Positions 46,283 to 59,434 of a DNA stretch of 64,000 nucleotides are shown one piece after another. The notes below the pieces were generated by a model. It did no database searches. It was not told the DNA's origin and saw only the letters and a list, made by a program, of their open reading frames with translations. Position 1 is the first letter of the stretch. Each line of letters starts with the position of its first letter. This DNA is from Trueperaceae bacterium (GTDB lineage Bacteria; Deinococcota; Deinococci; Deinococcales; Trueperaceae), in the NCBI GenBank assembly GCA_965213925.1, contig OZ243927.1, forward strand, positions 800,001 through 864,000, written 5' to 3'. The position numbers and the translations under genes were made by a program.

Positions 46283-47544
46283 TTGGCTCATCCAGTTAAT
46301 TCGACTCAGGACTAAGCTGAGGACCTCACTTTAAGGAGGTCGGTGATGCGTCCTTGCGCCCGTGTTCGTCAGCTAACCGAGGAAGAGTATAGGAACTCAA
46401 GCGTTGGGAACGCTCACGGACGATGGGGCTAGTTCACGGCGGGCACGCACCGTGCTGCAGTCGAACCTAGGGTTGTCGGTACATGAGGTGGGCGAGAAGC
46501 TCGAGCTACACCACCAGACGGTGCGCAAGTGGGTGAACCGCTTCACGAAGCTGGGTATTCCTGGTTTAGAAGAAAGCCCGCGTCACGGGCGACCTCACAT
46601 CTACAAAAGCGAGCATGTCGGCACTGTTATTCAAACGGCTTTAACGAAACCTGATGAGCTAGGTTTACCTTTTGGCGCTTGGACCCTCGACAGGCTGGTC
46701 GTCTACCTCAGTGAAGAGAAGGGCATCATGATGGGACGCAGTCGTATGAGCGAAATCTTCAGGAACGAGGGGCTGAGGTGGCGACAACAAGGAGGGTGGT
46801 ATGGACAAAAGGTGGACCCCGAGTTCGCTGAAAAAAAGGGTGCCACCCTACAGCTCTACACCGACCCACCAGAGAACAGCGTCGTCCTCTGCATAGACGA
46901 GATGGGACCGCTCGCCTCAAGAACATATGAAGGTAAGGAGCTGACCAAAATTCGTGGACCCCCCGCCGGACGCGCGAAAGTCGCGCTTGACTATACACAT
47001 CGCCCGAAAGGTGGTTTCGTCTTCGGCGCATTAGAACCCGCCTCAGGCGCAGTATTCACTGAGATGGTCCCGCGCCGCATCGGCGGGCACTATACCGAGT
47101 TTCTGGGAAAGGTCGAGCAGTGGGTCCCGCCCGAGGTCAAGCACATCTACGCCATCATCGACAATCTCTACATGCACAGCTCTTACGACGTGCTCCTTTT
47201 TAGTCTGGCTCACCCCAGGTGGGAGTTCGTCTTCCAGCCCAAGTACGCTAGGTTACCGACAATACCCGCTTCGCAGGGCACAGGACCGGATTCGCCTAGC
47301 GGCGATCACCTAGGGGTATCTCAACCTCACCGAGCCCTGGTGGAAGACGTTACGCTCTTTAGCTCTCAAAGGCAGGCGCTTCGAGGTCTGGACCGAGATG
47401 GTTGAGCCCATTCGAAGAGCCACTGCCTACTGGAATGACCACAAGCACCCTTACGTTTGGGGCAGAAGAAGACGCCACCGCACGCCGCGTAAGTTTGGCG
47501 TCGCCGCCCTCCCTACCGTGAGCGCTTTTTAATGGACGAACCAT
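46283..47544 (+). mobile_element. IS630-family element with disrupted transposase
   Basis: TA-TTGGCTCATCCA...TGGACGAACCAT-TA; CIDEMGP, IIDNL..H, PKYA, YLN..EPWW; 5' frameshift and a 66-bp insertion. Confidence 0.88.
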
Positions 47545-47975: not shown

Positions 47976-49157
47976 TCAGGTTTCTTCGTCTATAAAAAGT
48001 ACATCGCGCACGAGACTGCGGCTGTCCGCCTGACCGCCAAGCGAACCCGCCAGGGTGCCGAACGCGGAGACGAACAGGCTCAGCTTGATATGGTCGAGCG
48101 TTCGCACCGCCGGGTCTACGGTCGGCCACGTCTCCATAAGTTGGCGCGGAAAAATCGTAGCGACGCCCAAGTAGACGAGCGCGGCGAAGGCGGCAAAAAT
48201 AAACAGCGTCGTCAGCGTAAGACTGAGCAGGATAGCCGCCCCGGTGACGACGCTCGACTCGGCTAAACGTCGGCCCCTGCGCCGGGGTGCGCCGAAAGCG
48301 AAGGCGCGGTAGAGCGCAAACGTTCCCACCGCTACGGACACACCCGCAAACAAGATGAGTTGGTACAGCTCGACGGTGCTTGCTACGTCCCACATCTCCG
48401 GGCTGAAAAACACGACGATGATAACCGACAGCGCTGCGGTAATCAGGGTAGGCAGGCGCGTCGCCAAACGCAGCGGGTTCGCCCTGGCTACAGCGTGAGC
48501 GATACTACGCCAGTCGCTCCGAAGCGTGCGCAGCACGAAACCCCAGCGGTTGCCCTGGCTCGTGCGCTCGTGCGCTTCACGCGGCAGGGCTAGGCGCACG
48601 TGGTTCCGCTGCTCGGGCGTCAGCGTCGCCATCGCGCCCAAATCGTCTACGCTTTCAAAATCGTACATCGCGTTGTGCGCCTCGTCCGAGTGCGGCAAGT
48701 TGAGAAGATGACCGAGCGTATGCAGCAGGAGGTGATTTAGGCGCTGCACGGTGAGCGCCTCGTCCGCTTCTTCCCCCCAAAAAGCGGGCTCGAGCCGCTT
48801 CGTCGAGATGACGCCGATGTTGGTCAGCTGACTCGGCAGGGCGAGGGTGTAAGAAAGTGTGGTGGCGGCGAGGTCGACTTCAGTGACGATGAGGAGAAAG
48901 TCGGCGTTACGCTCGAGTTTTTCGCTCACGCCGAGGCGCAGAAAGTCGAGCGGCGCGTAGGCTCCGGCGGTCGGGGTGAGGTGCGGTCCGTCGAAACGGA
49001 GTAGGTCAACACGCAGCCCTAGTTCGGTGCCAAGCGCCTTGTCAAACGCCGTCACCGCCTCGTTCGCCAGCCTCTCGAAACGCTCCGAGTGCTTGCCCTC
49101 CACGTCTATCGTCATCACACCGACGACGTACTCACGGCTCGAGGGGGTCTTAGACAT
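47976..49157 (-). CDS. Zincin-like domain fused to a multi-TM membrane domain
   Basis: HTLGHLLNLPH...NAM Met-turn; C-terminal TM helices with FSPEMWD. Confidence 0.6.
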   Translation of the reverse strand: MSKTPSSREYVVGVMTIDVEGKHSERFERLANEAVTAFDKALGTELGLRVDLLRFDGPHLTPTAGAYAPLDFLRLGVSEKLERNADFLLIVTEVDLAATTLSYTLALPSQLTNIGVISTKRLEPAFWGEEADEALTVQRLNHLLLHTLGHLLNLPHSDEAHNAMYDFESVDDLGAMATLTPEQRNHVRLALPREAHERTSQGNRWGFVLRTLRSDWRSIAHAVARANPLRLATRLPTLITAALSVIIVVFFSPEMWDVASTVELYQLILFAGVSVAVGTFALYRAFAFGAPRRRGRRLAESSVVTGAAILLSLTLTTLFIFAAFAALVYLGVATIFPRQLMETWPTVDPAVRTLDHIKLSLFVSAFGTLAGSLGGQADSRSLVRDVLFIDEET

Positions 49158-49656: not shown

Positions 49657-50187
49657 TCACTCAGCCTGCTGTCGGCTTGGGAACCGCTGCTCGGCGACCT
49701 TACGCAAAAGACGGTGCAGCGTCTCCCGCTCGGTCCCGCTCAAACACCCGTAGGTATCACTATCCGCCGCGTCGATAATGCTCCTACTCTCTTTGAGAAC
49801 GCGCTCACCCCGAGCGGTCAGTACCAGCTCGTAATAGCGTCGGTCATGGGTGCTCTTCACGCGCTGCACGTAACCGAGCGCTTCTAAGTCGTCTACAAGG
49901 CGCACCACGTGGGTGCGGTCCAAGCCTAGGTTCTGACTGATGGCGACCTGTGAGCGATGCTCGCTCTCGGCGATGAGCTTCATCACGCCAAGCTGACGCG
50001 CGTCGATGTGAAGCGGCTCCAACATCTCCTCCAGGACGAGCTGCGCCATCTGCGCGACGTAGCTCAGTACGTACCCCGTCTCCGACGCCAGCGTCTCGGA
50101 GAGGTCGTGAGAGTTGAAGTAGAGGGGCGGCGCGGGCACGCGATTCCGTTTAGGGACTGCTCGAGCATCTTTTGAAGCCTCAGACAT
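49657..50187 (-). CDS. MarR-family transcriptional regulator
   Basis: SQ.AIS..LGLDRT..VRLVDDLE..GYV.R....DRR....LTARG. Confidence 0.92.
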   Translation of the reverse strand: MSEASKDARAVPKRNRVPAPPLYFNSHDLSETLASETGYVLSYVAQMAQLVLEEMLEPLHIDARQLGVMKLIAESEHRSQVAISQNLGLDRTHVVRLVDDLEALGYVQRVKSTHDRRYYELVLTARGERVLKESRSIIDAADSDTYGCLSGTERETLHRLLRKVAEQRFPSRQQAE

Positions 50188-50890
50188 GGGCTAGTCTACA
50201 CGTCGTGCGCCGAACCACTCTCATGTGGGTAGCCCTGCGCAGGTACGCGAGCAAGCGGTGCTGCATTTCAAAGGTCTCCAAAAGCACGTCTCGAAAACCC
50301 TTGTCCGTTACCTCGTCGTCGCGGAAATGTCGGATGGTCAGGTACTGGTTGAGCCGCAGCAGGTGAATCGCGGGGTGGTCAGTGCTGTAGCCGCGCGGCG
50401 CGTTTTTAAGGCTGTCCTCATCGTCTAGAACGTCAGAAAACACCTTGCGAAAGGCGTCGTTGTCAACGAGCTGCTCGAGTTCCTCCGGCTTGTCATGGAT
50501 GCACTCGCGAATGGTACTTAGCACCTCGCGCTTAGGCGAATGAAGCCCGCCGCCAGCGACGCTCCCGCCGGGCGTGATGTTGAGGTAGTACCCCGGTTCG
50601 ACCTCCCCTAGAGGCGCAATGACCGCCATGATGTACGTTTTGAGCGGCGCGGCGTTGTCAGGGTGAAAGCGCGTATCGCGGTAGATGCGGGGCAAGCTCA
50701 CGACGCTGCCGCCTCCTAAATCCTTGCGCAGGCGTTCGTCGAAGGGGGCGATGTCGACTGCGACACCCTTGATACTCTGCTCGAAGGCAACTTTCATCGC
50801 CTTATAGTCGTCTTTACGCTCGTTGAACCAGTCCTTGGTGTTGTTTTGCTCGAGCTGGCGGAAGAACTCGAGCAAGGTCGGGTCGATCAT
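50180..50890 (-). CDS. DUF2461 (TIGR02453-like) protein
   Basis: FF.QL..NN.KDWF...K..Y, RIYRDTRF, LKNAPRGY..DHP.I.LLR. Confidence 0.85.
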   Translation of the reverse strand: MIDPTLLEFFRQLEQNNTKDWFNERKDDYKAMKVAFEQSIKGVAVDIAPFDERLRKDLGGGSVVSLPRIYRDTRFHPDNAAPLKTYIMAVIAPLGEVEPGYYLNITPGGSVAGGGLHSPKREVLSTIRECIHDKPEELEQLVDNDAFRKVFSDVLDDEDSLKNAPRGYSTDHPAIHLLRLNQYLTIRHFRDDEVTDKGFRDVLLETFEMQHRLLAYLRRATHMRVVRRTTCRLAHV

Positions 50891-50900
50891 GCTGCCTCTA

Positions 50901-52184
50901 TCATATTGCGCCTCGGTCGGTATCTCCCCCGCGTAAGTTCAGCATCTTGTCCATAATGACCTCCCCGCGACCAGGTTCACTCCAAGGGCAGACCTCGATA
51001 CAGATCGCGCAGCTCTCGTTGGCGACGAAGTAAGGTGCGCAGCGGTCGAAGTTGATAAACCACCGCTCCTCACCTCGGACCATCTGTTTGGTTTCGAAGA
51101 TGGCTTGCGGCGGGCAGTTGGTCGTGCAAATCTGGCAGGACATGCAGAAATCGTCCACGCCTATGTCGATAGGTACATCGGGTTCCAGGGGCATGTCCGT
51201 AAGTACCGTCGCTAGCCGCACGTTAGAGCCGTAGTCCTTGGTGATCATCGAGTTGTGCTTGCCGAGCTGCCCTAAGCCCGCTGCAATCGCGATGGGCACG
51301 TGTTGCACTTCAGACGTACCGGGCGCGATGTTCGTACACGCTATCGCCGGATAACCCCGACTGCGGATGTATTCGGCAAGACGGATCGCTGCCAAGCCGA
51401 CCTTACGGTAAATGCGAAAGACCTCGGCATGCGTGCGTATCTGGGTCGGGTAGCGCATCTCCTCGCGGTCCATCGGCACAGCGATAGAAATGGCGTACTT
51501 AAACGAAGGCTCGAAACCGTCGAAGAACCACTCATCTTGAGGCTCGGTGATGCCGACTAGAGCCGCGCCGTGCTCCTTGGCAACCGCTTTGACTCGTCCG
51601 CTCATCGCTTTGGGGCTCGTCACCGTCTCCCGCCGCCTCGCGACCGCCCCGACGCGCCGCCGGTCATCCCAGAACAGACGTACAATGACACGGGTAATTC
51701 GCCAAGATGTGAGCGTGAGGAGTACCTGGTGCAAGCCGCCCCAAGCGTAGCTAAAATCGAAGAAGAGGTAGTAGGGCCGACGCTTTTCTGTTTCGTCCAG
51801 ACCGCTTATGACCATACCCGAGACGGGCGGTTTGCGGTAGGCAAAAGGATAGCTGGGCTCCGGGTAGGACGGAAGGGCGACGTCGGGGGACTTGCGGGGC
51901 GGCAAGTCAGTTTTGGGCGACAGGTCCGCGCTGATGTTCGGCAGTGTGTCAAACTGCTGCGTCTCCGCGTCTGGCGGCTTTGGGAGGTCTTCGATCCAGA
52001 TGGTCTCTCCCCTCGAGATTTTCCGCCTGAACTGCCACTTTTGCCACTCACCGACCGTCCAATAGGCGAGTGTTGCCCCGGCGGCAAGCCCGACGCTTCT
52101 CAGCATCCTCCCCGCTATACGGACGTGCTGAGCGAGCTGTTCGGTACAGGTTCGGGGACGTTCAATCTTGACTGCCATCCACAT
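50901..52184 (-). CDS. Reductive-dehalogenase-like 2x[4Fe-4S] protein, copy A
   Basis: GA.LVGIT, AAGLGQLGKH..ITKDYG.NVRLATVLTDMPL..D.PIDIGV..FCMSCQICTTNCP, C-X9-CAICIEVCPWS. Confidence 0.8.
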   Translation of the reverse strand: MWMAVKIERPRTCTEQLAQHVRIAGRMLRSVGLAAGATLAYWTVGEWQKWQFRRKISRGETIWIEDLPKPPDAETQQFDTLPNISADLSPKTDLPPRKSPDVALPSYPEPSYPFAYRKPPVSGMVISGLDETEKRRPYYLFFDFSYAWGGLHQVLLTLTSWRITRVIVRLFWDDRRRVGAVARRRETVTSPKAMSGRVKAVAKEHGAALVGITEPQDEWFFDGFEPSFKYAISIAVPMDREEMRYPTQIRTHAEVFRIYRKVGLAAIRLAEYIRSRGYPAIACTNIAPGTSEVQHVPIAIAAGLGQLGKHNSMITKDYGSNVRLATVLTDMPLEPDVPIDIGVDDFCMSCQICTTNCPPQAIFETKQMVRGEERWFINFDRCAPYFVANESCAICIEVCPWSEPGRGEVIMDKMLNLRGGDTDRGAI

Positions 52185-52256
52185 CTCCTCTAGGTTGGGG
52201 CTTTTTACAAAAAGTCAATACATCTTCGTTACGGTAATGTGACAGGAAAGTCACCT

Positions 52257-53525
52257 TCACGTTTCGGCACTCCCGCGGCGGCTGAGCATCTTGTCCATGA
52301 TGACGTTGCCGCGCCCCGGTTCACTCCACGGGCAGACCTCGATGCAGATGCCGCACCCCTGGTTGGCTGAGAAATAGGGGACGCACTGATCGAAATTGAT
52401 GAACCACCGCTCTTCACCCCGCACCATCTGCTTGGTCTCGAAAATGGCTTGCGGCGGGCAGTTTGTCGTGCAGACCTGGCAGGACATGCAGAAGTCGTCC
52501 ACACCGATGTCCACGAGCTGGTCAATTTCCAAAGGCAGATCAGTCAAGACCGTCGCGAGCCGCACGTTCGCGCCGTAATCCTTTGTGATGATCGAGCCGT
52601 GTTTGCCAAGCTGCCCCAACCCGGCTTCAACCGCAAGGGGAATGTGTAGCACCTCCGTCGTGCCAGGAGAGATGTTCGTGCTAGCCCTGGCGGGATAGCC
52701 TAGGCTGCGGATGTGTTCGGCGAGGCGGATGGCGACGCGCCCCACGTCCTCGTAAATGCGAAAAACCTCCACCATCGCACGCTCGCTCGGCGTGTAGCGC
52801 ATCTCCTCGCGGTCCATTGGCACGGCGACGGAGATGGCATATTTGAATGAGGGCTCGAAGCCCTCGAAGTACCACTCGTCGCGCGGCTCGGTAATACCGA
52901 CTAAAACCGCGCCGCACTCCTTCGCGACCTCTTTGATTCGTGCACTCATCGCCGCTGTATCAGTAACCGGCTGCTGGTCTTTCCAGACCGCCCCGTCACG
53001 CCGCGCGTTATCCCGGAAGATGCGCACGACCGATCGCACGACGCTGAGTGGGATCAGAGTAAAAAACACTTGCGTCAAGCCGCCCCAGGCGTAGCTAAAG
53101 TCGAAGAAGAGGGGGCGAGGTCGGCGCTTCTTTGCCTCGTCTAAGCCGCTGATGACCATGCCCGACACGGGCGGCTGCCGGTAGGCGAAGGGATAGCGGG
53201 GTTCGGGGTAGGACGGCAGGGCGACGTCGGAGGACTTGCGGGGCGACAGGTCGGTTCTCGGTGATAAATCAGCCTGAATATTCGGTAATTCGCCGAACCG
53301 CTGCGTCTCGGCGGAGGGGGGCTTGGGCAGGTCCTCGATCCAGACGGTTTCGCCGCGGGCGCTCGAGCGCGTCAGGTGCCGCTCCTGCCAACGTTTGAGC
53401 GTTCGGCTGGCGAGCGTCACGCCTAGGGCTAAGCTCGTGTTCACTAGCTTGTGCCGCGCGGCGCGAATGCGCTGGGAGAGGTGCTCGGCGCGGGTTTTCG
53501 GATGGTCATTTTTGGGAAGAGTCAT
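52257..53525 (-). CDS. Reductive-dehalogenase-like 2x[4Fe-4S] protein, copy B
   Basis: Same motifs as copy A (CMSCQVCTTNCP; CGICIEVCPWS); close paralogue. Confidence 0.8.
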   Translation of the reverse strand: MTLPKNDHPKTRAEHLSQRIRAARHKLVNTSLALGVTLASRTLKRWQERHLTRSSARGETVWIEDLPKPPSAETQRFGELPNIQADLSPRTDLSPRKSSDVALPSYPEPRYPFAYRQPPVSGMVISGLDEAKKRRPRPLFFDFSYAWGGLTQVFFTLIPLSVVRSVVRIFRDNARRDGAVWKDQQPVTDTAAMSARIKEVAKECGAVLVGITEPRDEWYFEGFEPSFKYAISVAVPMDREEMRYTPSERAMVEVFRIYEDVGRVAIRLAEHIRSLGYPARASTNISPGTTEVLHIPLAVEAGLGQLGKHGSIITKDYGANVRLATVLTDLPLEIDQLVDIGVDDFCMSCQVCTTNCPPQAIFETKQMVRGEERWFINFDQCVPYFSANQGCGICIEVCPWSEPGRGNVIMDKMLSRRGSAET

Positions 53526-53540
53526 GGTAGTTTGCGACGG

Positions 53541-54950
53541 TTACGCCGCTCGAGCCTCGCGCTTCACCATGCTAGGCTCGACCTCCGCCGCCTCCAACAT
53601 CGCCTCGACGGATGCGAACTTCGTGCGCCACCGCCTGTTCTGCAAACCCCCTGCACGTCGCTCCGCCCGGTCGATGCGCCGCCAGTCCTCCTTAGTCACG
53701 TAGCGCACATCCTTCTCCTCTAAGAGCCGGTTCACCGCCTCAGGTTCGGGGTTTTGTGCACGGGGCAGGCTCGGCAAGTCTTCGAGAAGATGCCGCACGG
53801 TCTCCTCGGCGTCGGTTTTGTTCGTACCGATGACGCCCGAAGGTCCGCGCCGCACCCAGCCGGAGGTGTATTCACCCGGTACGACCTCACCATCTGAAGT
53901 CGTCACACGCCCACCCTCGTTCGGGATGACGCCGCGCTTATCGTCGAAGGGCACGTCCGGAAGAGGCTGGCTGCGGTAGCCGACCGAACGCAGCAGCAGA
54001 CCGGTATCCAAGTGCTCAAGCTCACCCGTGCTAACAGCCGAGAGGCGGTCGCCCTTGGGCTCGAGCCGGTTCTTTTCCAACTTGAGCCCTTGTACCCGCC
54101 CCTCTCCTAGCACTTCAACCGGCGACCTGAAGAAGTGAATATGGACGCGCTTCTCTGCGCCGGGCTTGCGCTGATCTGCGTATTCGGTAAACAGCGCCAC
54201 GTTTCGCCGGGTCTTCTTCGCTTCTAATTCATTTTTGAACGTGTCCTCTTGGTCGGACTCGAGGTCCGCTGGGTCCACAACCATATCTACATCAGGCAGT
54301 TCACCCACTTCGCGCAGCTCTTTGGGCGTAAAATTCGCCTGCGAGGGTCCGCGCCGCCCTAAGATGTGAACGTCGGTGATGCTCGAGCGTCTAAGCGCGT
54401 CCACCGCATAGCCCGCCATGTCGCTCTCGGCGAGCGCGTCCGGGTCCTTGAGGAGTGCCCGCGTCACGTCCAGCGCGACGTTGCCCATGCCGATGATGGC
54501 GGCGTGCTGCGCATCTAGGGGCGGATTCAACCCTGCGTGGTCCGGGTGCGCGTTGTACCACGCGACGAACTCGGTGGCGGAGAGGCTGCCGGGGAGGTCT
54601 TCGCCAGGGATGCCCAAGGACTTATCGCTGCTCGCGCCGACCGTATAGATGACCGCGTCATAGTGCCGCTTTAGCTCGCCATGCGTGATGTCCTGACCGA
54701 ACGTGACGTTGCCGAAGTAGCGCACCGCCTCGTGCTTCAAGATGAGGTCGAAGGTGACCGACTTGGACTTCACTACGGGGTGGTCGGGCGCGACGCCGTA
54801 GCGAACTAGCCCGTACGGACTCGGCAGGCGTTCGAAGAGGTCCACGGACACCTTGCCCCCATTTTTCAGTAGGGCGTGCGTCGCGTAGAAGCCTGCCGGA
54901 CCTGCGCCGATGATCGCGACGCGCAAAAGGCGTGAGGAATGTTTAGACAT
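53541..54950 (-). CDS. Ferredoxin-NADP+ reductase (adrenodoxin reductase/FprA-like)
   Basis: GAGPAGFY, PYGLVRYGVAPDH, GMGNVALDV.R, GRRGP, GW.RRGPSGVIGTN. Confidence 0.92.
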   Translation of the reverse strand: MSKHSSRLLRVAIIGAGPAGFYATHALLKNGGKVSVDLFERLPSPYGLVRYGVAPDHPVVKSKSVTFDLILKHEAVRYFGNVTFGQDITHGELKRHYDAVIYTVGASSDKSLGIPGEDLPGSLSATEFVAWYNAHPDHAGLNPPLDAQHAAIIGMGNVALDVTRALLKDPDALAESDMAGYAVDALRRSSITDVHILGRRGPSQANFTPKELREVGELPDVDMVVDPADLESDQEDTFKNELEAKKTRRNVALFTEYADQRKPGAEKRVHIHFFRSPVEVLGEGRVQGLKLEKNRLEPKGDRLSAVSTGELEHLDTGLLLRSVGYRSQPLPDVPFDDKRGVIPNEGGRVTTSDGEVVPGEYTSGWVRRGPSGVIGTNKTDAEETVRHLLEDLPSLPRAQNPEPEAVNRLLEEKDVRYVTKEDWRRIDRAERRAGGLQNRRWRTKFASVEAMLEAAEVEPSMVKREARAA

Positions 54951-55030
54951 GGAAACTCTCTTTCATCTAAATTTGCTTCTGAGATACGAGTAATTGCGAA
55001 GCGCCACGGTTGTCTCCTCGAGTTGACAAA

Positions 55031-55131
55031 CAGCAATTCCATTACTCGTTGCTACACCACTGATTGCGTCCATTTCTATTCGCATCCGCTCACACTTTTG
55101 CTTGCTACAGCAAGCAAAAGTGGAAATGCTA
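55031..55131 (+). repeat. Dispersed hairpin element E2
   Basis: CAGCAATTCCA...CGCATCCGCTCA-CACTTTTGCTTGCT-AC-AGCAAGCAAAAGTG-GAAATGCTA. Confidence 0.8.
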
Positions 55132-56765: not shown

Positions 56766-57415
56766 ATGCGACATGCCTACGGTCTGGACATCCCGCAAAC
56801 TCTCGAGGAGACGCTCGACCCCCAACGTACCGCCCTCATCGTCTACGACATGCAGGTCGGCATTCTGCAACAACTCGCTCACGGCGCGGAGGTCCTCGAA
56901 AAGGTACGGCAGGTGTTAGGAGCCGCCCGCGCGGCCTCCATGCGCATCTTTTTCATGCGGCACATGTCCTTGCCCAAAGAAGCCGGCGGCGTATTCGGGC
57001 TCCACATGGCGATGCGCTGGCAGCACGTGACAAGTGTAGAGGATGTGCAGCCTTGGTTCCTGCGTAACTCGCCGGGCTTTCACATCACCCCGGAACTCGA
57101 GCCCCGAGCGAGGTCGTCTTCGACAAGATCACGATGTCTGCCTTCGAGGGTACCCCGCTCGACATCGCCCTGCGCGACTGCGGCATCAACAGCTTCGCCA
57201 TCGTAGGCGTCGCCACCGAGATAGGCATTGACCCTACGGTGAGGCACGGCGCGGACCTCGGCTACCTGCCCATCGTCGTGCGCGATGCGTGCGGCGCGGG
57301 GCACCACGAGGCGGGGGAGCGCGCTCTGGAGAACCTCGCCTTCGTGGGGGACGCCCTATTTACCGACACCGCCACAATCACCGACCTGCTCGCTAGGTAC
57401 GTAACGACGGTCTGA
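56766..57415 (+). pseudogene. Isochorismatase/cysteine hydrolase, frameshifted near 57105
   Basis: TALIVYDMQ in frame 1; FDKITMSAFEGT..D..LR, GVATEIGI, V.DAC in frame 2. Confidence 0.8.
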
Positions 57416-57595: not shown

Positions 57596-59434
57596 ATGGA
57601 GCAGTTCGACCGGCGGACGTTTCTGAAGCGGATGGGCGTGACGAGTTTAGCGTTGGCGACGCCCTATATCCTCACAGCGTGTAGCGAGTTAGAAAGCGTA
57701 CCCGCTTTTAGCGGCGAAGATGAGGATGTCGCGGACGAGTTCGCGGCGCTCCAAAAAGACCGTGATCCGAAAGAAGTTTTTAGCTTGTCGGTAGCTTCGG
57801 GCGACCCCACGCCCTCAGGCGTGATGCTCTGGACACGCATCGACCCAGCGGCCTATAAGAAGAACAAGAAGCTCGCCTTCGAGGTGGCGCGTGACGCGGA
57901 CTTTGAGGACGTCGTGGCGAGAGGTCGCGTCAAGGGCAGTGACATCACGCCGGAGAACGACTACACAGTTAAGTTGCACCTAGACGGCAAGCTACCTCCC
58001 AATACGCGCCTCTACTACCGCTTCGCCTACCGGAAGACGGGCAGCCAAGTCGGGCGTTGTCGCACAGCTCCGGCAAGGGGTGAGGAGACCGAACGCCTCA
58101 AGTTGGGCGTCATCACCTGCCAGGACTACACCAACGGCTATTACGGAGCGTTGGAGCAGCTCGCTCAGGACGACGTGGACTTCGTCGTTCACCTGGGAGA
58201 CTTTATCTACGAGACTTCGGGCGACCCGCGCTTTCAGCGTCAACCTTTTGAGGACCGCACCTTTTCCTTGCCGAGCGGCGGCGAAGCAGCGCTGAACTTA
58301 GAGGACTACCGCTTCATCTACCAGCTCTACCGGAGCGACGCCTTTTTGCAGACGCTCTTGGAGCAGCACACCCTCATCGCCATTTGGGACGACCACGAGA
58401 CCGCTAACGACTGCTACTGGGACTACGCGGACGGCTGCGTAGGCGTGCCCGACCACCCGTACGCGGACGCACCCCGCGAAGTTCGCAACGCCCTCGCCTT
58501 CGACGCGCGGCGGGCTTGGGCGGAGTATCTGCCTGCTAGAGTCACCTTGCAAGAGGACGCTGATGACCCGCGCCAGTTTTTGGACATCCGCCGGACGTTC
58601 GCCTTTGGCACGCTGCTCGAGCTGTTCATGACCGACGAACGCTCCTACCGCGATCCACCCCCTTGCGGCACCGGCGACGCAGGCGAGCGCTACTTCACGC
58701 TGGGCTGTCCCGAGCAGGATGACCCGGAGCGCAGCATGTTAGGGCCGCAGCAGCGTGAGGGACTTCTCAGCGGCATCAAAAATTCCGAGGCGACCTGGAA
58801 GGTATGGGGTAACGAGGTCTTTCAGGGACCTCTCAAAGTCAATCTGGGTGACGGAGCCTCTCTTTACCTCAACCTGGACGCTTGGGACGGCTACGAAGCC
58901 GAACGCGAGCGGATCATGCGAGAGCTGAAAGAGGCTAACGTGAAGAACCTAGTCGTGCTGACGGGCGACCTGCACACCTACATCGCCTCGTACCTCAAGG
59001 TGGACTACGGTAGAGACCCCTTCAACATTGACCCGCGCAACCTTGTCGGGGTGGAATTCATGACGCCAGCGGTCACGTCAGCGAACTTTGCTGAACTCAT
59101 CGGGGTAGGTGGGGACAGAGGTTCGTTCGGCGAGTCGTTCGGAACCCAGAATTTAAGCACGCAGGAGGTCGAGCGGTTGGAGCAGCAAGGGTTAGAAACC
59201 CTCGTGCGCATCACCAACCCCCATATTCAATTCTTCAACTCCGAGGACTGGGGCTACTCCACCGTGGAGTTCACAACCTCTTACTGCGAATACACCGCTT
59301 ACAAGGTGGACAAGTCGAAGCCCGAAGGAGATGACAAAGTGATCTTGAAGCGGCTGCGCGTGCCGGTGAACCGAGTGCGCATCGAGGATACGACCTCAGC
59401 TGGCACAGGTATCTCGCTCGTCACGTCGGCTTAG
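57596..59434 (+). CDS. phoD: Alkaline phosphatase D, Tat-exported lipoprotein
   Basis: DRRTFLK, LTAC lipobox, SVASGDP, HLGDFIYE, WDDHE, DAWDGY, LTGDLH. Confidence 0.93.
   Translation: MEQFDRRTFLKRMGVTSLALATPYILTACSELESVPAFSGEDEDVADEFAALQKDRDPKEVFSLSVASGDPTPSGVMLWTRIDPAAYKKNKKLAFEVARDADFEDVVARGRVKGSDITPENDYTVKLHLDGKLPPNTRLYYRFAYRKTGSQVGRCRTAPARGEETERLKLGVITCQDYTNGYYGALEQLAQDDVDFVVHLGDFIYETSGDPRFQRQPFEDRTFSLPSGGEAALNLEDYRFIYQLYRSDAFLQTLLEQHTLIAIWDDHETANDCYWDYADGCVGVPDHPYADAPREVRNALAFDARRAWAEYLPARVTLQEDADDPRQFLDIRRTFAFGTLLELFMTDERSYRDPPPCGTGDAGERYFTLGCPEQDDPERSMLGPQQREGLLSGIKNSEATWKVWGNEVFQGPLKVNLGDGASLYLNLDAWDGYEAERERIMRELKEANVKNLVVLTGDLHTYIASYLKVDYGRDPFNIDPRNLVGVEFMTPAVTSANFAELIGVGGDRGSFGESFGTQNLSTQEVERLEQQGLETLVRITNPHIQFFNSEDWGYSTVEFTTSYCEYTAYKVDKSKPEGDDKVILKRLRVPVNRVRIEDTTSAGTGISLVTSA

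Follow-up and report, generated by a model that had tools for sequence, protein, structure and literature searches.

A 64,000-nucleotide stretch of the genome of a Trueperaceae bacterium (GenBank assembly GCA_965213925.1, contig OZ243927.1, positions 800,001 to 864,000), here called the window, carries a cluster of genes for two proteins resembling reductive dehalogenases (RdhA) and for an FprA-type reductase that may supply them with electrons. Five co-oriented open reading frames (ORFs) on the minus strand span window positions 49657-54950 in the ORF listing (Table 1). Their intergenic spacings, read from 5' to 3', are 15, 72, 10 and -8 bp; the DUF2461 gene, at its start coordinate, and the MarR gene overlap by 8 bp. 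The ORFs and gaps recovered here are those that an earlier reading of the letters alone (the sequence-only reading) had proposed, and both RdhA-like translations contain the motifs it had pointed out (AGLGQLGKH..ITKDYG.NVRLATVLTD, CxxCxxCxxxCP and C-x9-C-x2-C-x3-CPW). A terminator-like site was looked for on the minus strand inside the cluster and none was found, and a 716-bp gap separates the upstream end of the cluster from a divergent zinc-type dehydrogenase gene. The five-gene system is real and probably cotranscribed.

Table 1. Genes of the cluster and candidate operator sites upstream of it (window coordinates).
Feature	Position	Strand	Remarks
FprA/adrenodoxin-reductase-type NADPH:FAD oxidoreductase, 469 aa	53541..54950	-	first gene; Pfam Pyr_redox_2/NAD_binding_8, PDB sequence matches
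RdhA-like protein 1 (Rdh1), 422 aa	52257..53525	-	4Fe-4S dicluster and TIGR02486 match
RdhA-like protein 2 (Rdh2), 427 aa	50901..52184	-	4Fe-4S dicluster and TIGR02486 match
DUF2461/TIGR02453 protein, 236 aa	50180..50890	-	PF09365 match
MarR-family regulator, 176 aa	49657..50187	-	last gene; Pfam MarR_2 and MarR
Candidate operator: perfect 14+14 nt inverted repeat, 2-nt spacer	55093..55122	.	143-172 bp upstream of FprA start
Candidate operator: second palindrome	55010..55029	.	60-79 bp upstream of FprA start

Placement of Rdh1 and Rdh2

Rdh1 and Rdh2 are 71% identical across 414 residues. Both match the reductive dehalogenase profile TIGR02486 (RDH) over profile positions 86-280 of 314 (130.8 bits, E 1e-38 for Rdh1; 142.4 bits, E 3e-41 for Rdh2), and on the epoxyqueuosine reductase (QueG) profile TIGR00276 they score 57.9 and 57.5 bits, well under its 200-bit cut-off. 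Compared by sequence with proteins of solved structure, Rdh1 scores 98.5 bits against NpRdhA, 95.6 against PceA and 39.8 against QueG, with only residues ~196-402 aligned. An AlphaFold2 model of Rdh1 built on a 38-row alignment of its family (pLDDT 91.1, pTM 0.92) consists of a hairpin of long N-terminal helices (residues 12-56), an extended linker of ~90 residues that includes invariant positions, a corrinoid-type core and a domain for two [4Fe-4S] clusters. The best Foldseek match of this model was PceA of Desulfitobacterium in the complex 8q4h (E 2.3e-18, TMq 0.49). Matches to PceA and NpRdhA overall lay at E 1e-16 to 1e-18 with TMq 0.48-0.59, while QueG was far weaker (E 2.7e-8, TMq 0.34).

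The core-domain tree comprised 78 rows: 25 from the ~420-aa family of Rdh1 and Rdh2, nine short forms, 16 other proteins without a twin-arginine translocation (Tat) motif, two NpRdhA-like proteins (~740 aa), 22 Tat RdhAs and four QueG. The Tat RdhAs were drawn from small Chloroflexota genomes rich in RdhA genes, and all show the Tat motif. Groups were labelled by length, Tat motif and score on the family core profile, so the profile partly defines them; four QueG loci, along with some incomplete ORFs, did not pass the score and length filters. QueG was split from the other 74 rows with support of 100/100 in a careful IQ-TREE analysis and an SH-aLRT of 99 in a quick tree. The ~420-aa family formed one clade in the quick tree (SH-aLRT 96). 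In the careful tree, it made up a 30-row group (93/97) together with five very long-branched short proteins that were weakly nested within it (81/86), and we make no claim of strict monophyly. This group stood apart from a clade of 25 rows holding all 22 Tat RdhAs and three Tat-less proteins (99/94) and from the NpRdhA-like pair, with a backbone among the RdhA groups that lacks resolution. Rdh1 and Rdh2 were sisters (100/89) and, because they are each other's closest relatives, the pair points to a recent tandem duplication.

Catalytic positions follow the same division. Tyr258 and Arg322 of Rdh1 align with Tyr426 and Lys488 of NpRdhA, which the available text of PMC10463259 names, along with Arg552, among the catalytic and binding residues of that enzyme; the position of Arg552 is Phe in Rdh1. 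The Tyr258 column holds Tyr in 25/25 family rows, 9/9 short forms, both NpRdhA-like proteins and 19 of the 22 Tat RdhAs, and His in all four QueG. Position 322 is Arg throughout the family (25/25), Lys in the NpRdhA-like proteins, Arg or Lys in 18/22 Tat RdhAs, and Thr or Leu in 4/4 QueG. The cluster cysteines (C346, C349, C352 and C356-P; C381, C391, C394 and C398-P) are invariant in the 25 family rows, and Rdh1 and Rdh2 both retain every catalytic and cluster residue. By profile scores, fold, tree and catalytic columns alike, the two proteins do not group with QueG. The RdhA-type rather than QueG-type identity proposed in the sequence-only reading is thus supported.

A widespread family of ~420 residues

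A word-indexed search returned 1957 relatives at E <= 1e-5. The best 120 of these 1957, on which our description rests, are nearly all 415-430 aa long, with 43-88% identity, and their named sources include cyanobacteria (Leptolyngbya, Nodosilinea, Synechococcus, Cyanobium), Chloroflexota, Myxococcota, Bacteroidota and Rubrobacteraceae. They are labelled at source as '4Fe-4S dicluster domain-containing protein', 'reductive dehalogenase domain-containing protein' or, wrongly, 'epoxyqueuosine reductase', and relatives in the ESM Atlas bear only the automatic name '4Fe-4S ferredoxin-type'. Proteobacteria have shorter forms of 317-377 aa that lack the first ~100 residues and begin at a conserved 'P-x-SGN-x-ING-x-GE...RRP'. 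A gammaproteobacterial metagenome-assembled genome (MAG; G305, locus L007) holds nine RdhA-like genes: two NpRdhA-like genes of ~740 aa and seven frames of 319-370 aa that include a tandem pair. Within the phylum of the window, the full-length family was present in three of 301 sampled genomes, namely the window's own genome (G000, 96.9% complete), a member of the same genus (G206) and a third Trueperaceae genome (G199). The nearest named genome for the family is a Trueperaceae MAG.

Some family members are fused to a reductase. Six proteins of 749-792 aa (P0214-P0219) are 38-44% identical to Rdh1 over 85-94% of its length, and the three that were scanned (P0214, P0217 and P0219) have a C-terminal Fer2 [2Fe-2S] domain and FNR-type NAD/FAD-binding matches. 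One of these Fer2/FNR-fused members comes from Aquimarina sp. Judged by domain content, the build of P0214-P0219 appears to be that of the 'self-sufficient' catabolic RdhAs.

Cellular location

The Tat motif RR.F[LI]K is absent from Rdh1 and Rdh2. The same organism does use canonical Tat signals: a PhoD-like protein at 57596 starts MEQFDRRTFLKRMG (RRTFLK). No candidate for the membrane anchor RdhB was seen, since none of the 57 ORFs of 50-200 aa between 46500 and 58000 has at least two transmembrane-like segments, and the gaps of 15, 72 and 10 bp between the cluster genes are too small for an rdhB. Both proteins stop ~20 residues past the second cluster motif and so have no fused reductase domain. 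Motif scan, small-ORF scan and protein ends thus agree with the sequence-only reading on all three absences.

The N-terminal helix reaches a Kyte-Doolittle maximum (19-residue window) of just 0.65 in Rdh1 and 0.99 in Rdh2, and of 0.82-1.34 in their nearest relatives. In 13 of the 38 aligned family members, mainly cyanobacterial, the value is at least 1.6, hydrophobic enough for a membrane anchor. Because they have no Tat motif, no rdhB-like ORF and a helix of low hydropathy, we read Rdh1 and Rdh2 as probably soluble, cytoplasmic and RdhB-free.

An FprA-type reductase as probable partner

The first gene of the cluster encodes a full-length flavoprotein of the FprA/adrenodoxin-reductase type. 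In the PDB it matched Mycobacterium tuberculosis FprA (1lqt, 388.8 bits, residues 10-452 of 469) and bovine adrenodoxin reductase (1cjc, 337.2 bits). We searched this protein, without a profile, against 1.84 billion representatives, listed 150 proteins, and scanned the domains of 11 of them picked by length. The top matches came from its own lineage (88%). Next came P0224, a protein of 799 aa whose residues 344-797 are 61% identical to the window FprA and which is the closest relative outside the window's lineage among the matches listed. The first ~330 residues of P0224 are RdhA-like (TIGR02486 71.9 bits; 30% identity to Rdh1 residues 120-408; Fe-S domain at 258-315).

P0224 is one of four such fusions. 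Whole RdhA-like domains precede the FprA domain in P0224, P0235 (829 aa) and P0238 (812 aa), and P0230 (598 aa) keeps only the end of one; the corresponding TIGR02486 scores are 72, 67, 69 and 42 bits. All three whole fusions retain the Tyr, the Arg and all eight Cys. In an FprA tree of 83 sequences, made by a quick LG+G4 search with SH-aLRT support only, a 13-row clade (SH-aLRT 99) united all six FprAs encoded beside Rdh genes, all four fusions and three rows of unknown context, one of which is the copy on contig C6 of the window's own genome. Three further FprA relatives (P0261, P0270 and P0283) are fused directly to domains with two [4Fe-4S] clusters of the ferredoxin kind, so FprA-type enzymes can adjoin clusters like those of RdhA. 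Among the other fusions, P0320 (1293 aa) and P0367 (1024 aa) combine an FprA-type domain with an N-terminal ferredoxin domain and a C-terminal molybdopterin oxidoreductase, and P0227 combines one with a thioredoxin-reductase-like domain. In the literature outside subscription journals, we found no publication pairing 'reductive dehalogenase' with 'adrenodoxin reductase', none pairing it with FprA among the matches listed, and no paper on the ~420-aa family or on 'reductive dehalogenase domain-containing protein'.

Conservation of the neighbourhood

We compared the six Rdh loci of the three Trueperaceae genomes. The window's own genome has six Rdh copies, 55-86% identical, arranged as three tandem pairs. 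Its contig C6 (L016, 1-15909) carries the same five genes as the window beside a DDE transposase, with an identity to the window that varies from gene to gene (MarR 99%, DUF2461 96%, Rdh2 98%, Rdh1 86%, FprA 88%). Paralogous loci may have recombined to give this mosaic, or the assembly may contain a strain variant. The third locus reads Rdh-Rdh-FprA-MarR, without DUF2461, and lies inside an operon for a Bmp-type ATP-binding cassette transporter. The same-genus genome has FprA-Rdh-DUF2461-MarR on contig C8 and Rdh-FprA-Rdh-Rdh-MarR on contig C2, the latter with a 46-residue DUF2461 remnant before MarR, and the third genome has Rdh-FprA-MarR. FprA and MarR therefore adjoin Rdh in 6/6 loci, in two gene orders, and the loci hold 1, 1, 2, 2, 2 and 3 Rdh copies. 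Across them, identity is 54-88% for Rdh and 67-88% for FprA.

The picture differs outside Trueperaceae. We fetched 80 metagenome loci with the family alignment, many on short contigs, so that ~25 have at least 5 kb on both sides. In flanks of up to 6 kb, none of the 80 carries a relative of FprA, DUF2461 or MarR (tblastn, E < 1e-6), and only one has a second Rdh copy. The alphaproteobacterial locus L002 likewise has no FprA, MarR or DUF2461 relative nearby. Metagenome neighbours vary and include SNF and MFS transporters, TauD, amidohydrolases and GST, among others; ORF clustering of 84 loci found no partner common beyond small groups of related contigs. Near other RdhA types, no MarR, FprA or DUF2461 relatives were found in 40 loci, with a flank of 1.5 kb only.

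The gene order FNR-rdh-rdh-DUF2461-marR, whose conservation had been proposed as a check, is borne out within Trueperaceae only: FprA and MarR are kept at all six Trueperaceae loci, but the order is absent from the metagenome loci. The FprA link is real and, as a neighbourhood, confined to the Trueperaceae lineage. The proposed coupling to a stand-alone FprA-like reductase gains from these six loci, from the natural RdhA-like::FprA fusions and from the common FprA clade. Because FprA neighbourhood, FprA fusions and clade, and Fer2/FNR-fused family members together point the same way, a supply of NAD(P)H-derived electrons would be the best-supported part of the mechanism considered below.

DUF2461, MarR and flanking sequence

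The DUF2461 protein scores well over the cut-offs of PF09365 (170.8 bits; cut-off 22.8) and TIGR02453 (161.5 bits; cut-off 105.4). A PDB sequence search gave nothing below E 0.06 and Foldseek, with its model (pLDDT 92.2), nothing at E <= 0.001. Structural alignment of the model with the DUF1054 fold gave Z 13.9 for 2a8e (rmsd 3.0 over 179 residues) and Z 11.4 for 3mqz; DUF2461 and DUF1054, both of unknown function, appear to share one fold despite ~10% identity. Weaker rows at Z 4.4-6.4 (type III secretion chaperone and YbjN-like folds) were not interpreted. In the part of the literature available, DUF2461 is named just as a neighbour of an extracytoplasmic function sigma factor group.

The sequence-only reading expected this cluster to give DUF2461 a functional context, and the distribution of the gene speaks otherwise. 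DUF2461 is intact at three of the six Trueperaceae Rdh loci, and its relatives occur in 73/301 genomes of the phylum, far beyond the three with the full-length Rdh family. Close relatives (at least 45% identity) occur in six genomes, three of them without the full-length family at the search threshold, and in G199 the gene lies ~2 Mb away from the Rdh locus. Two further genomes, G278 and G291 (loci L182 and L181), have DUF2461 followed by a MarR gene whose product is 58% identical to that of the window, with no Rdh or FprA adjoining. This two-gene unit is divergent from a gene for a PIG-L-type deacetylase. DUF2461 is therefore only loosely attached to the Rdh locus.

The MarR protein matches PF12802 (35.7 bits) and PF01047 (32.9 bits), both over cut-off, and no NCBIfam equivalog at cut-off. 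MarR regulators reportedly accompany rdh genes in Dehalococcoides. Orthologues of the window's MarR, with 57-99% identity, adjoin every Trueperaceae Rdh/FprA locus as well as the lone DUF2461 genes of G278 and G291. One MarR lineage found with Rdh/FprA, with DUF2461 or with both hints at a shared regulon. The two palindromes upstream of FprA (Table 1) may be operators for this regulator. The 14+14 nt repeat is kept at the near-duplicate C6 locus (L016 6380-6407), as is the second palindrome with 1 mismatch. Neither was found at the four other Rdh loci (up to 5 mismatches allowed for the 14+14 nt repeat) or at the DUF2461-MarR loci. Because the palindromes are common only to the window and its near-duplicate, they provide no phylogenetic footprint.

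Several features flank the cluster. About 2 kb away, an ORF at 46404-47405 (+) matches HTH_32, HTH_23, HTH_29 and HTH_33, typical transposase N-termini, and the GC content falls to 0.55 on either flank. Immediately downstream, at 47976-49157 (-), lies a gene for a 393-aa protein with a hydrophobic C-terminal half and an archaemetzincin-like N-terminal half (NF033823, 53.6 bits, under its cut-off). At 56766-57415 (+), a frameshift or a sequencing error divides an isochorismatase-family gene into overlapping frames of 146 aa (profile positions 1-86) and 93 aa (profile positions 96-164).

Proposed mechanism and alternatives

We favour, as the probable though far from certain reading, a soluble NADPH-driven class-III cobalamin (RdhA-type) reductase system that most likely removes halogen from a small organohalide. 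FprA would accept hydride from NADPH onto its FAD and hand single electrons, directly or via a host ferredoxin, to the two [4Fe-4S] clusters of the C-terminal ferredoxin-like domain. The clusters would bring the predicted corrinoid to Co(I), which would attack the substrate while Tyr258, backed by Arg322, donates a proton as in PceA and NpRdhA. The likeliest reaction would be reductive dehalogenation of a small, probably aromatic, natural organohalide, in detoxification or catabolism. MarR would hold the operon repressed until a ligand arrives, and the recent tandem duplication that gave Rdh1 and Rdh2 probably broadens the substrate range. Corrinoid use is plausible because CobS was found in the window's genome.

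Several observations weigh against this proposal. Neither Rdh1 nor Rdh2 reaches the curated TIGR02486 cut-off of 160.35 bits, PF13486 matches neither at E 0.01, and the family's tree group includes no characterised dehalogenase or other characterised enzyme. Mean column identity across phyla is 59% in the 38-row alignment, unusually high for RdhA-like proteins, and tree branches are short. Such constancy agrees better with a single conserved physiological substrate than with diversification towards xenobiotics. No CbiB was found in the window's genome, and corrinoid would thus need salvage. Some points touch the FprA link in particular. The RdhA domains of the FprA fusions belong to another subgroup (117-133 bits on the family core hidden Markov model, against 285-402), the FprA tree is a quick one, the five-gene cluster has no ferredoxin gene, and the varied metagenome neighbourhoods described above lack FprA. 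For NpRdhA, the available text of PMC10463259 reports that the neighbouring ferredoxin reductase gave no activity support in vitro, which shows that neighbourhood alone can mislead.

The most serious alternative is that the same machinery carries out other chemistry, with the family as a third class that uses Co(I) on a conserved non-halogenated compound, such as an epoxide or a substrate with another leaving group. On that view, the operon in Trueperaceae would serve stress response or detoxification under the control of MarR. Conservation of ~45-55% identity between phyla, along with the mean column identity and the scores under the RDH cut-off just noted, suits this idea, as do the invariant N-terminal residues P107, Y111, F113, P119, S121, G122, G127, E130, R134 and W147. 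K308, H309, S311 and N320 are also invariant in the family and different in Tat RdhAs and NpRdhA-like proteins. Outside Trueperaceae the gene is mostly single-copy and stand-alone, and source names show the family to be abundant in oxygenic and aerobic lineages. However, the Tyr/Arg pair typical of dehalogenases is invariant, while QueG, the sole known non-dehalogenating member, has His and Thr/Leu in its place. Sequence and fold are nearer PceA and NpRdhA than QueG, and six copies of 55-86% identity in one genome look like substrate-range diversification. We regard other chemistry as a genuine but clearly lesser prospect; dehalogenation would be our leading guess, with a conserved non-halide substrate ranked second. 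The sequence-only reading also raised a possible heterodimer of Rdh1 and Rdh2; as an obligate pair, one would be catalytic and the other structural. All three loci of the window's genome are tandem pairs, and RdhAs without the vestigial second core, such as PceA, are dimers. Yet both copies keep every catalytic and cluster residue, and they are mutual closest relatives, as expected of recent duplicates. One copy is present at G206 contig C8 and in G199, three occur at G206 contig C2, and 79/80 metagenome loci are single-copy. We therefore find an obligate pair improbable.

Two other readings fare worse. Rdh1 and Rdh2 could be membrane-anchored respiratory enzymes like the 'transmembrane' RdhA class, held by the N-terminal helix and fed from the quinone pool. 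The long helix in the model (residues 12-56) and its hydrophobicity in the 13 mostly cyanobacterial members would agree with this, but in Rdh1, Rdh2 and their nearest relatives the helix is less hydrophobic, a soluble NADPH reductase adjoins, and no membrane protein is encoded in the cluster. Moreover, members with a hydrophobic helix are also fused to an NAD(P)H reductase (e.g., P0217), and a twin-arginine motif ahead of the helix is not conserved in the alignment as judged by eye. We consider an anchored respiratory enzyme very unlikely. The remaining suggestion, that the Rdh proteins replace a missing epoxyqueuosine reductase (QueG or QueH), arises from a gap in the window's genome, in which QueA is present (255 bits), QueH was looked for and not found, and no QueG exceeds the cut-off, the only TIGR00276 matches being the six Rdh genes at 53-59 bits. 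Within its family, QueG is missing from each of the three genomes sampled, whereas all 58 genomes from the phylum's other families match QueG at E <= 1e-40, and 57 of these matches exceed the curated cut-off. Nevertheless, G058 (same genus, 99% complete) and G059 have neither QueG nor the Rdh family, and in G302, an alphaproteobacterial genome, a family member coexists with a true QueG (421 bits). With catalytic columns unlike those of QueG and the 100/100 tree split, we rejected this replacement, to which we assign next to no likelihood; six copies, MarR control and an FprA partner are also a poor fit to a housekeeping tRNA enzyme.

Relation to known systems and significance

Within the favoured reading of a soluble NADPH-driven dehalogenase-type system, one close parallel is NpRdhA of Nitratireductor pacificus (PDB 4RAS, 6ZXU-6ZY1). 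Like Rdh1 and Rdh2, it is cytoplasmic, without Tat signal or RdhB, and combines a corrinoid-type core with two [4Fe-4S] clusters; its catalytic Tyr aligns with that of Rdh1, and its Lys488 stands opposite Arg322. According to the available text of PMC10463259, its gene is clustered with a separate ferredoxin oxidoreductase. NpRdhA differs in being a ~700-aa monomer of the naturally 'truncated' catabolic type, with a vestigial second cobalamin-type domain, and in having Arg552 where Rdh1 has Phe, and its similarity to Rdh1 is confined to the C-terminal half. Its cluster includes two ferredoxins, whereas that of the window has an FprA/adrenodoxin-reductase-type partner and no ferredoxin gene. 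The self-sufficient enzymes BhbA and JtRdhA, with their phthalate-dioxygenase-reductase-like module, likewise take NAD(P)H electrons via a flavin reductase. P0214-P0219 carry the same kind of C-terminal module, but in the window the reductase stands alone, comes from a different flavoprotein family and lacks a [2Fe-2S] domain.

PceA of Sulfurospirillum multivorans (4UQU) and Desulfitobacterium (8Q4H) provides the best fold matches of the Rdh1 model and, by the alignment columns, shares its Tyr/Arg pair. Unlike Rdh1 and Rdh2, it is Tat-exported, RdhB-anchored and respiratory, and it exceeds the RDH cut-off. QueG (TIGR00276; PDB 5D6S, 5D08) shares the superfamily, the predicted cofactor set and the cytoplasmic location, and differs in its His and Thr/Leu columns, its separate clade and its coexistence with a family member in G302. 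The window FprA resembles M. tuberculosis FprA and bovine adrenodoxin reductase over its full length, and both of these are NADPH- and FAD-dependent. The partners known for those two enzymes, small ferredoxins or adrenodoxin, pass electrons on to P450s, whereas neighbourhood and fusion indicate an RdhA-like enzyme as the partner here.

Published RdhA classes, as given in the available text of PMC10463259 and PMC6797604, are respiratory, transmembrane and two catabolic subfamilies. A study of cold-seep metagenomes (PMC12219181), in the parts available, describes a 'simplified cytosolic' RdhA type in Chloroflexota of ~395 aa without the vestigial domain, cytosolic rdhA-like genes that are often beside IclR or MarR regulators, and a 'novel clade' of RdhA-like proteins with a single N-terminal helix. 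By description these groups resemble the window proteins, and those parts mention no FprA-type partner or fusion. The general kind, a Tat-less catabolic enzyme of RdhA type that draws its electrons from NAD(P)H, is already known. What is new is that the catalytic subunits come from a very large, conserved and uncharacterised family, and that the partner FprA subfamily is also fused to RdhA-like domains.

The electron source of non-fused catabolic RdhAs is not settled: the reductase and ferredoxins encoded beside NpRdhA failed in vitro, and non-native partners take their place (PMC10463259, available text). Here, three lines point to one NADPH flavoprotein: neighbourhood in two gene orders, natural fusions and a shared FprA clade. 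FprA and the RdhA-like enzyme make a simple two-protein system amenable to in vitro test. A bolder extension, which we offer tentatively and think rather doubtful, is that this FprA subfamily would be the missing physiological donor for cytoplasmic class-III cobalamin reductases in aerobes, and that the ~420-aa family, whose identity stays near 50% between cyanobacteria and Deinococcota, would form a third functional class, distinct from respiratory/catabolic dehalogenases and from QueG, acting on one widespread natural substrate.

The cluster also brings into view an RdhA-like family, very large and strongly conserved, that spans cyanobacteria, Chloroflexota, Myxococcota and marine metagenomes and has no characterised member. 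If the family does not dehalogenate, a new B12 reaction is to be discovered. If it does, aerobic and phototrophic bacteria would constitute a large unrecognised sink in the natural halogen cycle.

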